Shown here: one piece after another, positions 6,365 to 34,049 of the stretch | How positions within the stretch are numbered: the stretch's first letter is position 1 | Layout: each line of letters starts with the position of its first letter | DNA from: Bacillota bacterium | GTDB taxonomy: Bacteria; Bacillota; SHA-98; UBA4971 | Length of the DNA stretch: 64,000 nucleotides | Direction of reading: 5' to 3' | Assembly (NCBI GenBank): GCA_050261335.1 | Contig: JBLNDE010000009.1 | Coordinates: forward strand, 30,010 to 94,009 | The notes under the pieces: generated by a model | The model's input: only the letters and a program-made list of their open reading frames with translations | The model's database searches: none | Told to the model about the DNA's origin: nothing | Position numbers and translations under genes: made by a program

Positions 6365-6370
6365 CATGTG

Positions 6371-6985
6371 TGCCAGGGCAGGTGGTGCAGTATTCTAGTC
6401 AGCACCACCATCTTTGAAGGCGGGCCTAAAAATCCGTCAAGGGCACATCGATGAAGTCCCTGGTGCTGGCCGCCGACGCCCAGTCGGGGGCTGGTGCTGG
6501 GGGTTAAGAGGCGAGGGCGATCTGCAATGGCATGCGGGCGTGGACCCTCTCCTCGCGGAGACCCGACCCCGTGGTGAGACGACACCGATCGGCTGCCACG
6601 GCCGGGGGGTAAACCTGCACCTAGGTGCGGGCAGGTGCGAGACACACCGCGCTTGGTGCAGTGTAGCCTGCCTTGAGTGGCGGGAGCGGGATTGCGGGTA
6701 CCAGGGCGCTCGTCTCCTGGCCGGGAGATGCGCTCGTTGCCGCATGAAACTCCAACTGCAAAAGAGGCTAGAAGATGGTGGGTGCTGCCGAGGAAAACTC
6801 CTAGACTGTCCGAATATGTGGGGCACTCCGGGGATTGCAGTGTGCGCTAAGTGGTAATCCGGCCGTCCGAAGGGGCAACCCCGGGAGGCGGTCGTAAACG
6901 GGAAACCGCCCGAGCGGCAACGCGAGGGAGCACCGCAGGGAAAACCAGCCGGACCTCAAGCCACAATATTTACCCGGGATGCCAC
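6371..6985 (+). ncRNA. ole: Candidate OLE (ornate, large, extremophilic) RNA
   Basis: ~600 nt GC-rich stretch with no coding potential. It has its own promoter and many local hairpins. It lies between ispA and a ~22 kDa membrane protein followed by dxs, which is the canonical ole-oapA locus. Confidence 0.5.
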
Positions 6986-7011
6986 CACCTGCCTGGGACG
7001 TTCTTGAGGTG

Positions 7012-28448: not shown

Positions 28449-30295
28449 GCGAGCGACACGATGAAAGCATCGTGGTGCTCGACGACGAGACCATCGACAA
28501 GATCGCTGCGGGCGAGGTGATCGAGCGTCCGGCGTCGGTCGTGAAGGAGCTTGTGGAGAACTCCCTCGACGCCGGGGCGTCCGGCATAACCGTGGAGCTT
28601 CACGGCGCGCCGGGCGACTTCATCAGGGTGAGCGACAACGGCTCCGGGATGAGCAGGCGCGACGCGAAGATGGCGTTCCGAAGGCACGCTACGAGCAAGA
28701 TCCGCACGGCCGCCGACCTCCACAGCGTCCTCACCATGGGGTTCAGAGGGGAAGCCCTTGCCAGCATTGCGGCGGTTGCCAAGGTTGAGCTCGTGACACG
28801 TCGCGCCGGGGACGTGGCGGGTACCCGCATCGTGCTGGAAGGGGGCGTAGCGGTGCTGGAAGAGGACGCGCCGTCACCCGTCGGCACCGCCGTGACGTGT
28901 CGAGACCTCTTCTTCAACACCCCTGCGAGGCGCAAGTTCCAGAGGCGCCCGGCAACGGAGTTCGACCACGTCCGCGACGTCGTGGCAAGGCTGGCCATGG
29001 CATGGCCGGATGTGAGGTTCCGGCTCGTCCGGGGCGGGCGGGATGTGCTCCCGGCCCAGGGAACACACGGTGGGGACAGGCGCGCGGCCATCGCCTCCAT
29101 CTACGGCGCGGACCTCGCGAAGACCCTGCTTCCCGTCGTGGCGGGCACGCCGCGAACGAGTATCGAGGGGTTCATATCGCCGCCCGACGTGACGAGGGCC
29201 AGCCGCGACACCCAGTGCGTCTTCGTGAACGGAAGGCCCGTGGCGGCACCCGCGGTCGTGCGGGTCATCGAGAACGCGTACGGCAGGAGGCTTCCGCCTG
29301 GAAGGTATCCCGCTGTGTTCCTGTGGATCTCGACTGACCCGGTGTCGATCGATGTGAACGTCCACCCGGCGAAGAGGGAGGTGAGGTTCTCAGGCGGACA
29401 CGACGTGTTCCAGCTTGCCGCTCAGGCGGCGGCCTCCGCCCTGCGCTCCGTTGGAGCGGCACCGGACCTCGCACGGAAGCTTGCTTATCCCGCGGGGGCG
29501 GGCGCCAGGCGCGCAGGGGCTGCCCGCGACGGCATGGGGGCATACGAGACCGGACCAGCCACGGGACCGCCGTTCACCGGTGCAGGCACGCCAGAGAACC
29601 TCGACAGCGTCGGTTCGCGCTCACCGCACGCGCAGGCACTCCGCCTCTCGTGCGCAGGCGGCCCGGCGCGCGAGCAGACCCGAGTTCACGACCAGGTCCA
29701 CGCTGGTTTCGCCCCTTTGGGCGTGTTCATGGGCACTTACATCCTCGCCGCCGACGGCGATGATCTCGTGATAATCGACCAGCATGCTGCGCATGAACGC
29801 ATCCTGTACGAGGCGGTGCTCGCCGGGCTCTCGACCGGCACCGCGCCCAGGGTGCAGTCACTCATTCCGACGACCATCGAGCTCGCGCCGCGGGCCGCGT
29901 CGCGCGTCCCGGCGGTCCTCGACGAGCTGGCGCGGATCGGGTTTGTGCTGGAGCCGTTCGGGCCGTCGGCGCTGCTGCTCAGAGGGGTCCCGGCCGCCCT
30001 CGGCGTCTTGCGCGGCACCGGCGACCTGGCCGGGGTCGTCCAGGGAGCGCTCGAGGCATGTTGTGATGACGCGGACGGCGGTGGACGTGATCCCGGGGAG
30101 GCGCTCGGGCGCGTCGCGGCCGAGGTCGCGTGCAGGGCGGCGGTGAAGGCCCACCGCGTTCTGGAGCCGCCGGAGATCGAGAGGCTCCTCGCGGACCTTG
30201 CGCGAGCAAGCGACCCATACTCCTGTCCGCATGGTCGGCCCACCGTGCTCAGGATCAGCCGCGCGGAACTCGAACGAGCCTTCCGAAGGACCTGA
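28445..30295 (+). CDS. mutL: DNA mismatch repair protein MutL
   Basis: GHKL ATPase N-terminus (IAAGEVIERPASVVKELVENSLDAGAS); ATG overlaps mutS stop. Confidence 0.9.
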   Translation: MSERHDESIVVLDDETIDKIAAGEVIERPASVVKELVENSLDAGASGITVELHGAPGDFIRVSDNGSGMSRRDAKMAFRRHATSKIRTAADLHSVLTMGFRGEALASIAAVAKVELVTRRAGDVAGTRIVLEGGVAVLEEDAPSPVGTAVTCRDLFFNTPARRKFQRRPATEFDHVRDVVARLAMAWPDVRFRLVRGGRDVLPAQGTHGGDRRAAIASIYGADLAKTLLPVVAGTPRTSIEGFISPPDVTRASRDTQCVFVNGRPVAAPAVVRVIENAYGRRLPPGRYPAVFLWISTDPVSIDVNVHPAKREVRFSGGHDVFQLAAQAAASALRSVGAAPDLARKLAYPAGAGARRAGAARDGMGAYETGPATGPPFTGAGTPENLDSVGSRSPHAQALRLSCAGGPAREQTRVHDQVHAGFAPLGVFMGTYILAADGDDLVIIDQHAAHERILYEAVLAGLSTGTAPRVQSLIPTTIELAPRAASRVPAVLDELARIGFVLEPFGPSALLLRGVPAALGVLRGTGDLAGVVQGALEACCDDADGGGRDPGEALGRVAAEVACRAAVKAHRVLEPPEIERLLADLARASDPYSCPHGRPTVLRISRAELERAFRRT

Positions 30296-31394: not shown

Positions 31395-31457
31395 AACGTT
31401 ACATCGTGCGCGATCGCCGGGGGAATGCATGTCGCAATGGGGAGGACGAACGACGAG

Positions 31458-31709
31458 ATGAGCAAGCCTTCACCGAACCTTCAGGACATGTTCCTCAATG
31501 CCGTCAGGCGACAGGAGATCCCGGTCACCATATACCTCGTCAACGGCTACCAGATGAAGGGCCTCGTGAAAGGCTTCGACAGCTTCACCGTCATCCTCTC
31601 CGATGGCGCGCGGCAAGATCTCATTTACAAGCACGCCATCTCCACCATCACCCCCGCCCGCGCGATCCCACTCCTTTCCCACGCCGACCATGAAGATAGT
31701 CCCGTCTAG
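31458..31709 (+). CDS. hfq: RNA chaperone Hfq
   Basis: Sm motif ([23 protein letters not shown]). Confidence 0.9.
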
Positions 31710-31831: not shown

Positions 31832-32209
31832 CTACAGTTCAAAGAGGCGCATGATGCCGGCCCGGATCCGGTTGAGCGTGTCTTGCCGAAGGGTTCCGAG
31901 ATACCCCTCGGTGTGACGGACGTCGATGCTGCGCAGCTGGTCAAGGAGCGCGACCGAACCGCGAGGTAAGCCTCCCTCTCCGGGGCTGAGGCTCGGATAC
32001 AGGGTCGGGTTCTCGCACGCCCATCGGCCAGCTTGCGTGGTAAGAGGGATAACGATGAGGGTTGGGTAGCGCAACGTGTCGGAGGGACACCCCACCACGA
32101 TCACCGGTCTCTTGCCTTCCTGTTCATGTCCCTTCGGAGTATCGAAGGGGAGAGCCATAAGAAGCACGTCGCCTGCGCCGACCGTTCGCTCACCGACCAT
32201 GACCCTCAT
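31832..32209 (-). CDS. Type II toxin, PemK/MazF family endoribonuclease
   Basis: ~125 aa with GDVLLMALPF...RPVIVV core; ORF extends to 32392. Confidence 0.7.
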   Translation of the reverse strand: MRVMVGERTVGAGDVLLMALPFDTPKGHEQEGKRPVIVVGCPSDTLRYPTLIVIPLTTQAGRWACENPTLYPSLSPGEGGLPRGSVALLDQLRSIDVRHTEGYLGTLRQDTLNRIRAGIMRLFEL

Positions 32210-32639
32210 CTCCTTCGATGACAAGGCCCCTACCCGGCACGTAGCGCACGGGTCTCGTCTTCGGAGGACCGCCAGGGCCCCAGTCGTATGGGGGAAGCGG
32301 GGCTTCGATCCTTGCTTCCAGCCACTGTCTGTCTTCTTCGGAAGGCTCCGTGGAACGCGGCTCCTCCGAAGCGTTCTCACGGTTACTGTCATCCAGATAC
32401 TTTCTCAGGGCCGTCTCGCGCACTGCGACAGGGGGCTGCGCGTCCTCCCGAGCGTCAAACCTGACAGCTCCGAACGCGTTTCGGGCGACGAAGTCCGCAA
32501 GGTCACTCTCCCGGATACGCCAGAGTTTGCCGGTCTTGACGCCTTTCAGCCTTCCCTGCCTCAGCCAGTCCCGAACGGTCTTCGGACTCACTACCATCCT
32601 CTGGGCGGCCTCCTCAGGGGTGAGCAGCCTCTCGAACAC
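32190..32639 (-). CDS. HTH (excisionase/MerR-like) DNA-binding protein, putative antitoxin
   Basis: N-terminal LTPEEAAQRMVVSPKTVRDWLRQGRL; GTG start with GGAGGGG RBS; overlaps toxin by ~20 nt. Confidence 0.6.
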   Translation of the reverse strand: MFERLLTPEEAAQRMVVSPKTVRDWLRQGRLKGVKTGKLWRIRESDLADFVARNAFGAVRFDAREDAQPPVAVRETALRKYLDDSNRENASEEPRSTEPSEEDRQWLEARIEAPLPPYDWGPGGPPKTRPVRYVPGRGLVIEGDEGHGR

Positions 32640-32740
32640 GTCGACCCCTCCATAACAGGGCTGTAGCCCCCAGCACCCCTCGCGGCCCCTGCGGGCCTGA
32701 CAGCCCTGTGGGGCGCTCCTGGGTCAGCCGTGCGGACTCA

Positions 32741-32815
32741 ACTATACGCTATCACCTGTTGCCGTCGCTATCAATACCGCATAGTACTGTATCATACTTT
32801 ACGGTATACGCTCTG
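32741..32815 (-). promoter_or_regulatory. AT-rich palindrome-containing putative promoter/operator of the toxin-antitoxin operon
   Basis: Only AT-rich block in the neighbourhood; AGTACT/GTATAC palindromes and GCTATCA direct repeats upstream of the antitoxin start. Confidence 0.35.
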
Positions 32816-33065
32816 ACACCATGCTCGGGGCACTGGTTGGCACGTGTGACGTGCGGGGAAGGGAAGACACTCCCACGACGTACCCACCTTCGCCTCGGCC
32901 CTTCCACCTCCTGGCTGGGAGAGGCCTCGAGCCCGCGCACATGCCCATTCTCTCCTGCATACCATATACGGTCAAGCGCTGTACCTGTGTCCGGTCCGCC
33001 CGGTTCTGCGGAGTCCCTCGTGGCACAGTCCGCGAGATGCGGTCTACGAGAGGTGGTGCAAAGTC

Positions 33066-34049
33066 ATGCTTGCCTTCGAGCCCAGAGACCCGAACCTGGT
33101 CCTTGCCGGCCTGGAGGAAGGGAGGCTGTCGCCTGTCGAGGCCCTCGAGGTTCTGAAGCACTCGGTAGAGCTCGGGCAGGCGGGGACGGCCGGAGGGCAG
33201 CGCTTCGAAGAGCCATCGTCTTCCAGCGCCTGGCGCCTGAAGGAAGCCCTCGCCGATCTCGATAGCCTCATCGGCCTCGACAAGGTGAAGGCCCTGGTGC
33301 GCGAGATCGTGGCTTACGTGAAGATCCAGCAGATCAGGGCGGCACGCCAGCTCACGTGCGAGCCCCTTGCCCTGCACATGATATTCAGCGGCAATCCCGG
33401 GACGGGCAAGACTACCTGTGCGCGCCTCTTCGGCAAGATATTCCGCGAGATGGGCGTGCTGGAGAAGGGGCATCTCGTCGAGCGGGAGCGGGCTGATCTG
33501 GTGGGCGAGTACATCGGCCATACGGCGCAGAAGACCCGCGAACAGATTAAGAAGGCCCTCGGCGGAATACTCTTTATCGACGAGGCATACTCGCTGGCAC
33601 GCGGTGGGGAGAAGGACTTCGGCAAGGAATCAATCGATACGCTCATAAGGGCGCTGGAGGACTATCGCGACAAGTTCATCGTGATACTGGCGGGCTATCG
33701 GGACGAGATGGAGACGTTCATCCACACAAACCCCGGCATCAGGTCACGGTTCCCCATCCACATCGAGTTTCCGGACTATACCACCGACGAGCTCCTGCGC
33801 ATCGCAGACCTCATGTTGAAGCAGCGGGATTACCGCCTCGACCTCGCAGCCCGCGCAAGGCTGGAGTTCATTCTGACGCGGAGGGCCGGTCCGGGCAACG
33901 ACCACTCCGGAAACGCCCGGCTCGTGCGCAACATCATCGAGCGGGCCATCAGGCGCCAGGCGCTGCGCCTGGTGGAGAAGCCGAACCTCTCCCGGGAGGA
34001 ACTCATGCTCATCCGGAGGGAAGACATCACCGACGACTTCTCCGCATAG
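33066..34049 (+). CDS. spoVK: Stage V sporulation protein K (AAA+ ATPase)
   Basis: SpoVK-type AAA+ (GNPGTGKTT; ILFIDEAYSL). Confidence 0.85.
   Translation: MLAFEPRDPNLVLAGLEEGRLSPVEALEVLKHSVELGQAGTAGGQRFEEPSSSSAWRLKEALADLDSLIGLDKVKALVREIVAYVKIQQIRAARQLTCEPLALHMIFSGNPGTGKTTCARLFGKIFREMGVLEKGHLVERERADLVGEYIGHTAQKTREQIKKALGGILFIDEAYSLARGGEKDFGKESIDTLIRALEDYRDKFIVILAGYRDEMETFIHTNPGIRSRFPIHIEFPDYTTDELLRIADLMLKQRDYRLDLAARARLEFILTRRAGPGNDHSGNARLVRNIIERAIRRQALRLVEKPNLSREELMLIRREDITDDFSA

Follow-up and report, generated by a model that had tools for sequence, protein, structure and literature searches.

A probable chromosomal MazF-type toxin–antitoxin module with an HTH_17-headed antitoxin in the hfq–spoVK junction of an uncultured Bacillota bacterium

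The stretch of DNA analyzed here, 64,000 nucleotides (nt) from contig JBLNDE010000009.1 of a Bacillota bacterium (positions 30,010 to 94,009 of the forward strand; hereafter the window, in whose numbering all positions are given unless another locus is named), carries on its minus strand a two-gene module between hfq and spoVK. We consider it very probable that this module is a chromosomal type II toxin–antitoxin (TA) system of the MazEF kind, which resides as accessory cargo in a variable hfq–spoVK junction and works by the mechanism proposed below. The upstream gene (32190..32639) encodes a 149-amino-acid (aa) protein with a helix-turn-helix (HTH) domain, the predicted antitoxin, and the downstream gene (31832..32200, stop codon 31834..31832) encodes a toxin of the MazF/PemK family. 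Both open reading frames (ORFs) are thus present where an earlier note on this DNA, made from its letters alone, had placed a minus-strand pair headed by a 149-aa HTH protein. The genes show the layout of a type II TA operon, as they are small, co-oriented, and overlapping, with the antitoxin gene first and encoding a DNA-binding domain. The antitoxin gene begins with a GTG, which is an ATG in relatives, 5 nt after the Shine-Dalgarno sequence GGAGGGG (32645..32651, minus strand; invariant in four related sequences), and ends with the TGA at 32192..32190. For the toxin gene, two start codons come into question, namely ATG 32200, which yields 122 aa and an overlap of 11 nt with the antitoxin gene, and ATG 32209 (32209..31832, minus strand), which yields 125 aa and an overlap of 20 nt. 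The Shine-Dalgarno sequence GAAGGAG (32210..32216, minus strand), which sits within the 3′-terminal part of the antitoxin gene and is conserved in the lineage of L001, one of the nearest related loci, lies 9 nt from the ATG in the first case and 0 nt in the second. In the alignment of relatives, the second toxin start codon is a GTG in the L001 lineage, and toxin homologues start 8–10 residues ahead of a conserved GD. Because of the better Shine-Dalgarno spacing, the GTG in relatives, and the N-termini of the homologues, the start at 32200 is favored, so that the toxin probably comprises 122 aa and overlaps by 11 nt. The earlier note had described a PemK/MazF protein of ~125 aa with an overlap of ~20 nt; the family assignment stands, whereas length and overlap are revised. 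The position of the toxin Shine-Dalgarno sequence within the antitoxin gene is consistent with translational coupling of the two genes.

The toxin matches the Pfam family PemK_toxin (PF02452) with an E-value of 5.9e-17 and 62.3 bits (cutoff 23.1), and the match spans positions 3–109 of the 109 in the profile. It remains below the cutoffs of the equivalog models that NCBIfam provides for E. coli MazF and ChpB (36 vs 120) and is therefore a member of the PemK/MazF family but not an orthologue of either protein. Sequence matches in the PDB are S. aureus MazF, B. subtilis EndoA, B. anthracis MoxT, Kid, and E. coli MazF, with E-values from 1.5e-5 to 2e-3. In a BLASTP alignment with E. coli MazF (32% identity), residues E29, R34, and T57 of the toxin stand opposite E24, R29, and T52, of which we take R29 and T52 to be the catalytic arginine and threonine/serine. 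Across a subfamily alignment of 13 members, R34 is invariant and T57/T58 are conserved to at least 90%, and a subfamily-specific insertion of ~9 residues is found around positions 60–84, with W63, Y71, G77, G80, and L81 being invariant. An AlphaFold2 (AF2) model, calculated from a shallow alignment, reached a predicted local distance difference test (pLDDT) value of 64 and a predicted template modeling (pTM) score of 0.62. When this model was compared with the PDB by Foldseek, MazF toxins made up all 50 best matches (template modeling score 0.54–0.71, E-values 6e-5 to 1.5e-3). According to the model, the toxin adopts the SH3-like barrel fold of the MazF/CcdB type, so that the MazF fold, whose absence on structure prediction the earlier note had named as the point that would speak against its reading, was retained. 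By its sequence and its model, the toxin is predicted to be a sequence-specific endoribonuclease of the MazF kind.

The antitoxin consists of three parts. Its head (residues 5–54; 32478..32627, minus strand) is a predicted DNA-binding winged HTH of the HTH_17/excisionase/BldC-like type, which matches Pfam HTH_17 (PF12728) with 9e-15 and 55.1 bits against a cutoff of 27, and TIGR01764 “excise,” which is a domain-level model only, with 1.3e-13 and 51.1 bits against a cutoff of 28.8. Both profile searches proposed in the earlier note, for PemK and for HTH_17, thus gave matches above their cutoffs. The closest structure is BldC, which was matched by sequence profile with an E-value of 1e-8 (6ama) and by Foldseek with 41% identity and a root-mean-square deviation of 1.4 Å (6ama/6amk); phage and integrative and conjugative element excisionases, RacA, and the N-terminal domains of MerR proteins follow next. 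These matches bear out the excisionase/MerR-like HTH that had been noted in the 149-aa protein. With 29 bits, the score for the NF033787 (HTH_BldC) model stays below the cutoff of 77, so that the antitoxin does not count as an orthologue of BldC. The head is modeled as a winged HTH without dimerization helix, as in BldC. The ~95 residues that follow the HTH have no match in Pfam or NCBIfam, and the Pfam scan gave no match to PF04014, the AbrB-type MazE domain, at E ≤ 0.1. By both head and tail, as judged from the sequence, the antitoxin lies outside the MazE (AbrB/SpoVT) family. The AF2 model of the antitoxin has pLDDT values of 79–88 in the head and of 76–79 in the tail, where a short helix and a beta hairpin are predicted, and values below 50 at residues 57–74 and 78–84 of the linker. 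A word-indexed search of 5.8 billion proteins yielded 19 full-length relatives, whose alignment shows the same division into a conserved HTH_17 head, a linker of 0–60 residues, and a strongly conserved C-terminal motif. In the antitoxin of the window, the linker, which is variable in length and predicted to be disordered, comprises residues 57–99 (32343..32471, minus strand), and the tail, a predicted MazF-binding and neutralizing module, comprises residues 100–149 (32193..32342, minus strand). The tail motif, WLEADxxxPLPPYDWGPxGPPKxxPVRYVPGxGLVIEG, extends over ~45 residues and includes the invariant residues W106, L107, D119, W120, G121, Y133, P135, G136, and G138. Homology to the tail of E. 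coli MazE, for which the shared “DWG” was the lead, was considered and rejected: no MazE from the PDB was found at E ≤ 10, and hhalign gave a probability of 0.5% over 6 columns (YDWGP vs IDWGE).

The tail is tied to the toxin in other genomes as well. Seven distant tail-bearing homologues could be located on contigs, and in all seven a PemK_toxin gene follows directly after the antitoxin gene, while the surroundings are unrelated and include an ABC transporter, an AraC-family gene, the sigE–sigG interval, a gene with an SNase domain, an M23/M50 peptidase pair, and others. In L083/L084 (4001–4699), the HTH_17–MazF pair is located between spoIIGA–sigE and sigG–spoIIR, and in L088 (3974–4697), it lies ~0.8 kb from a PHP_C gene preceding an M23/M50 peptidase pair that resembles spoIVFA/spoIVFB; this adjacency to sporulation genes may be due to chance (rough estimate, p about 0.06). 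The protein P0017 (L085 4001–4794) has the same HTH_17 head with a different C-terminus and overlaps a downstream ORF of 141 aa without Pfam match. This pair may represent a different toxin combined with the same head. The comparison suggests that specificity for the toxin resides in the C-terminus and not in the head. A search of 1.84 billion representative proteins with a profile built only from the tail retrieved 267 clusters at E ≤ 1e-3, 89 of them at E ≤ 1e-10. Nearly all matches are small proteins with the motif at their extreme C-terminus, and nearly all tail proteins are labeled “hypothetical protein” in public sources. Among the best 150 tail proteins, the N-terminal domains recognized by Pfam are HTH_17 (26), the Xre-type domains HTH_26 (11) and HTH_3 (6), AF2212-like (8), DUF2281 (3), and AbrB/MazE_antitoxin (2), as well as RHH/ParD, DUF433, and UPF0175; many of the 150 have no Pfam match in their N-terminal part. 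For one protein, P0047, the context of the Xre/AbrB head is uninformative, as it lies at a contig end. The tail alone matches no Pfam family at E ≤ 10, and Pfam matches in tail-bearing proteins are confined to the N-terminal parts. Judged by these matches, at least six N-terminal domains that are unrelated to one another occur in fusion with the tail.

The reverse search, in which metagenome contigs were scanned with the toxin alignment, yielded 80 loci, of which 56 contain a close member of the MazF subfamily together with at least 200 nt of upstream sequence and 22 contain more distant MazFs. A tail on the same strand is found upstream of the toxin in 47/56 of the close-subfamily loci compared to 3/22 of the more distant ones. 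In the 47 loci, the end of the tail lies 2–53 nt from the toxin hidden Markov model match (at most 19 nt in 46 of them), and an HTH_17 head is present in 17. Pairwise distances of tails and toxins are correlated (Mantel r 0.83, p ≤ 5e-4), whereby some co-divergence is expected of linked genes. Since the tail is present in 47/56 loci, only 17 of which have an HTH_17 head, the sequences identify the tail together with the MazF subfamily as the conserved unit, around which the DNA-binding head is exchanged. We infer that the toxin is bound and neutralized by way of the tail. The same data bear on the idea that the HTH_17 protein stands next to MazF only incidentally and acts as an excisionase or as a BldC-like regulator on its own, which might control, for example, the divergent spoVK or sporulation. 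The TIGR01764 match, the BldC-like head, the divergent orientation toward spoVK, and the positions of related pairs between sigE and sigG and near the M23/M50 peptidase pair would fit such a regulator, but its gene overlaps the toxin gene, the linkage of tail and toxin in 47/56 loci persists across differing N-terminal domains, the contexts of the other homologues are unrelated to sporulation, and no integrase or recombinase occurs among the neighbors. We regard this explanation as very improbable, and in the following the HTH_17 protein is treated as the antitoxin of the pair.

Upstream of the antitoxin gene lies an AT-rich block (32741–32815) with a GC content of 44% in a window of 64.6% GC, which places it in the lowest 0.06% of the 75-nt segments of the 64 kb. 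The earlier note had called it the only AT-rich, palindrome-rich block in the area; it is indeed the lowest in GC within 30–35 kb, but it is one of five such blocks in the 64 kb, and it is better read as direct repeats than as palindromes. The block comprises an imperfect inverted repeat with 13-nt arms (85% complementary) as well as short direct repeats. A candidate sigma-A promoter (32746..32774, minus strand) consists of the −35 element TTGATA (32774..32769), a 17-nt spacer with a TG at 32754..32753, and the −10 element TAGCGT (32751..32746). The promoter core GTACTnTGCGGTATTGAnAGnGACGGCAAnAGGTGnTAGnGTATAGTTGAGT is conserved in four related sequences, which effectively represent two lineages; the sister lineage has TTGACA as −35 element, and the −10 element is weak across the sequences, being TAGCGT or TAGTGT. 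The candidate operator (32768..32809, minus strand) is composed of the four head-to-tail units GTATACCGTAAA, GTATGATACA, GTACTATGCG, and GTATTGATAG with the consensus GTAYnnTRCR and a period of ~10 nt, whereby the last unit overlaps the −35 element. The array lies within the AT-rich block, here taken as 32733..32818, and its phasing is conserved in L001, L173, and L178. In the window, lag 10 is the top lag of self-identity (0.39, p 0.01 against shuffles), and in the sister lineage, the value is 0.50 with p 0.0005 (0.001 after correction). An unrelated HTH_17 subgroup carries 10-nt tandem repeats (AACGGATAWA, 2.7–3.6 copies according to Tandem Repeats Finder, TRF) between promoter and start codon. 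When non-redundant loci are compared, lag-10 periodicity is higher upstream of HTH_17-type antitoxins than upstream of tail antitoxins with other heads (Mann–Whitney p 6e-5), and the contrast persists when related sequences are merged into 12 groups (p 0.0018). BldC has no dimerization domain and binds AT-rich direct repeats in a head-to-tail manner (PMC5859096). Because BldC-family heads bind direct repeats in this way, the AT-rich block is read as direct repeats, and the periodicity, together with the analogy to BldC, supports a BldC-like phased direct-repeat candidate operator and not a palindrome. A palindromic operator was rejected as the primary reading, since the inverted repeat is only 85% complementary and the same bases fit the 10-nt array, which is stronger in the sister lineage; it is kept as a secondary reading. 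The leader of ~100 nt contains a perfect 10-nt inverted repeat (32655–32664/32700–32709, minus strand) enclosing GGGG N6 GGGG N4 GGGGG, of which the G-rich core (within 32655–32709) but not the stem is conserved in relatives. A regulatory RNA or hairpin was rejected for this leader, as there is no Rfam match and the fold z-score is −1.9 in the window and +1.0, with a different fold, in L173.

Chromosomal TA loci often decay, and the weak −10 element of the conserved candidate promoter as well as the truncated tail of the family member P0015 (L083) could be taken as signs of an inactive or decaying remnant, with a toxin that has lost its toxicity or a pair that has ceased to be expressed. Against this, the window and at least three related lineages have both ORFs in intact form, and the catalytic residues, all invariants of the tail, the Shine-Dalgarno sequences, and the start codons have been kept. 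In comparison with L001, the ratio of non-synonymous to synonymous divergence (dN/dS) amounts to 0.23 in the toxin gene and 0.33 in the antitoxin gene; for both module genes, it is 0.23–0.39 in comparison with L001 and L173, compared to 0.08 for spoVK. Both genes are under purifying selection, and a remnant appears improbable.

For a functional module of the MazEF kind, we propose that transcription from the promoter inside the AT-rich block would cover both genes, with translational coupling through the 11-nt overlap. The tail of the antitoxin would most likely wrap around the MazF dimer and block its RNA groove, and the HTH head would probably repress the operon by binding head-to-tail to the four ~10-bp repeats (GTAYnnTRCR) across the −35 element. 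MazF dimers may bridge antitoxin molecules and thereby act as co-repressor. Once replenishment of the presumably labile antitoxin ceases or the antitoxin is degraded, as might occur under stress, upon phage infection, or after loss of the locus, free MazF would cleave RNA and arrest growth. TA operators are classically palindromes bound by dimeric antitoxins, and to our knowledge the geometry of a BldC-style filament has not been documented for repression at TA operators. We tentatively put forward, with less than even confidence, that the tail (WLxADL-x3-LPPYDWG-x2-GxPxGxPVxYxPGxGlVv) is an undescribed portable MazF-neutralizing module that forms an antitoxin family of its own, and that its HTH_17 members autoregulate via BldC-style head-to-tail filaments on ~10-bp direct repeats, with MazF dimers cross-linking the antitoxins.

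Several observations weigh against the module and its regulation being as described. The confidence of the toxin model is moderate, with pLDDT values below 50 at residues 23–31 and 60–84. For the tail, profile search and hhalign revealed neither a PDB match nor a detectable likeness to any structurally characterized MazE. For one protein that combines an AbrB (MazE_antitoxin) domain with the tail, P0060 (L091 1809–2174), no toxin gene was called downstream, where the next gene is a minus-strand ORF of 278 aa without Pfam match; P0060 may represent an orphan antitoxin, or a small ORF may have been missed. The promoter is ambiguous, as a consensus scan flags GTGTCA-17-TATGAT at 32819..32791 and not the TTGATA site. 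The lag-10 signal of the window comes to p 0.09 after correction for all lags tested, TRF does not report the repeat, and an imperfect palindrome is a second possible reading of these bases.

The second part of the proposed explanation concerns the location of the module. It is flanked by hfq (31425..31709, plus strand; Pfam Hfq 1.8e-31) and spoVK (33066..34049, plus strand; TIGR02881 with 400 bits against a cutoff of 423, AAA plus AAA_lid_6), and its neighborhood comprises mutL, miaA, hfq, spoVK, a GTPase gene, a UbiA-like gene, and dapF. No intrinsic terminators were found in the interval where the toxin gene and hfq converge. Using SpoVK as a probe, we collected 80 Bacillota loci, 58 of which have hfq upstream of spoVK on the same strand, with a gap of at most 500 nt in 37 of the 58; in the window, the gap is 1356 nt. 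Only the nearest relatives (L001, L173–L178) carry the module, and it is absent from the next one (L002, 79% SpoVK identity). Four states of the interval can be distinguished, namely the module only (window, L001, L178), the module together with a cassette of DeoR, four-carbon acid-sugar kinase, PdxA, and GntP genes (L173–L177), the cassette only (L002), and neither of the two in more distant genomes. This agrees with the earlier description of the module as an accessory insertion that interrupts the hfq–spoVK neighborhood, and the comparison of the interval, which the note had proposed as a check, accordingly did not find the module in all relatives. Other lineages carry CheB, mannose-6-phosphate isomerase, ABC transporters, an MBL hydrolase, or a WG-repeat protein at the junction. 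Since this cargo is unrelated, the hfq–spoVK junction is generally variable and not specific for TA modules. The homology shared with L002 ends within hfq (31655) and begins again 20 nt ahead of spoVK (33046), and in this comparison no target duplication or repeat boundary of the insertion could be defined. The metagenome-assembled genome record that contains L002 (JBLNCC010000075.1) is labeled “Betaproteobacteria bacterium” in spite of its Bacillota synteny, and that of P0001, with 99% antitoxin identity and the order mutL–miaA–hfq…spoVK, is labeled “Bacteroidota bacterium”; mis-binning or mislabeling is likely in both cases.

At four-fold degenerate sites, the module differs from L001 at 30/137 positions (22%), compared to 307/765 (40%) for the flanks, i.e., mutL, miaA, hfq, spoVK, and the GTPase gene combined (Fisher p 3e-5). 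Synonymous divergence (NG86 dS) from L001 is 0.20–0.30 for the module and 0.56–0.88 for spoVK, mutL, and miaA; silent divergence of hfq is also low, on few sites. Such low silent divergence fits an exchange of the module between lineages after their split, with constraint on silent sites as the alternative. An origin from a mobile element, plasmid, or defense island was rejected, as no integrase lies within several kb, plasmid matches reach only the HTH level, PADLOC has no match for the toxin, and there is no GC anomaly. These data also bear on the explanation that the module is primarily an abortive-infection or phage-defense device, which would act by the same molecular mechanism but be triggered by the phage shut-off of host transcription. 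MazF-type modules have reportedly been linked to phage inhibition (e.g., PMC8927121), the module is accessory, patchy, and located in a variable junction, and its silent divergence of about half that of the flanks fits recent exchange between lineages. On the other hand, no PADLOC model matches the toxin, the antitoxin is matched only via its generic HTH (mad1, 1.1e-10), no plasmid match extends beyond the HTH, and no other defense genes are adjacent. A primary role in phage defense thus seems possible but rather unlikely to us, and a chromosomal TA module of the MazEF kind with the broader set of triggers named above is the explanation that we favor.

In comparison with known systems, E. coli MazE–MazF (ChpA) and Kis–Kid/PemI–PemK share with the present pair a MazF-fold toxin with matches to E24/R29/T52, an upstream, overlapping antitoxin gene, and an antitoxin built from a DNA-binding head and a flexible C-terminal region. 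Unlike MazE, which has a dimeric AbrB/SpoVT barrel, the present antitoxin carries a monomer-type winged HTH (HTH_17). Between its tail and that of MazE, no homology is detectable, and the toxin differs from E. coli MazF by the ~9-residue subfamily insertion. B. subtilis EndoA/EndoAI (MazEF-bs) and S. aureus MazEF, which belong to the same phylum, provide the best sequence and fold matches to the toxin at ~25% toxin identity. The antitoxins of these two systems are ribbon-helix-helix proteins with a helical toxin-binding C-terminus. Minimal MerR/excisionase-like HTHs do serve as antitoxin DNA-binding domains in PIN (VapC)/truncated-MerR pairs, but there the toxin is a PIN protein, and the putative toxin-binding extension is N-terminal and not C-terminal as here (PMC2701414). 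Truncated-MerR antitoxins are listed there with PIN toxins and not with MazF (Makarova et al., 2009), which is in line with the earlier remark that an HTH_17 antitoxin paired with MazF is a less common architecture. Streptomyces BldC (6ama/6amk; PMC5859096) likewise has no dimerization domain, and its direct repeats match the ~10-nt phased block, but it is a stand-alone developmental regulator of 68 residues without toxin partner, linker, or tail. Full-text literature searches, whose coverage is incomplete so that an earlier description is possible, revealed no description of the HTH_17–MazF pair or of the tail.

Two further features of the window were observed. Upstream of spoVK (~32945–32975, plus strand), the element AC-N17-CATACCATA is conserved in L001 and has been left intact by the TA insertion; it presumably resembles the consensus of sigma-K/sigma-E sporulation promoters and would as such suit spoVK. 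The consensus scan reports a sigma-70-like site on the opposite strand (32975..32947) instead. A full-length OLE (ornate large extremophilic) RNA is located at 6366–7004 on the plus strand (Rfam RF01071, 453 bits, model positions 1–616 of 616); taken with the gene order mutL–miaA–hfq…spoVK, it identifies the DNA as that of a member of the Bacillota with ~65% GC.

The module itself changes little, as it adds a further MazF-type TA locus to those on chromosomes, here of an uncultured member of the Bacillota. The tail, by contrast, is the hallmark by which the cognate antitoxins of an entire MazF subfamily can be recognized in Clostridia, Cyanobacteria, Chloroflexi, and other groups, and a tail profile would let annotation pipelines spot such antitoxins whatever their DNA-binding head. 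The family provides a clean natural example for the exchange of DNA-binding heads around a fixed toxin-recognition module, and it raises the testable idea that BldC-like minimal HTH domains may regulate TA operons via phased direct repeats.

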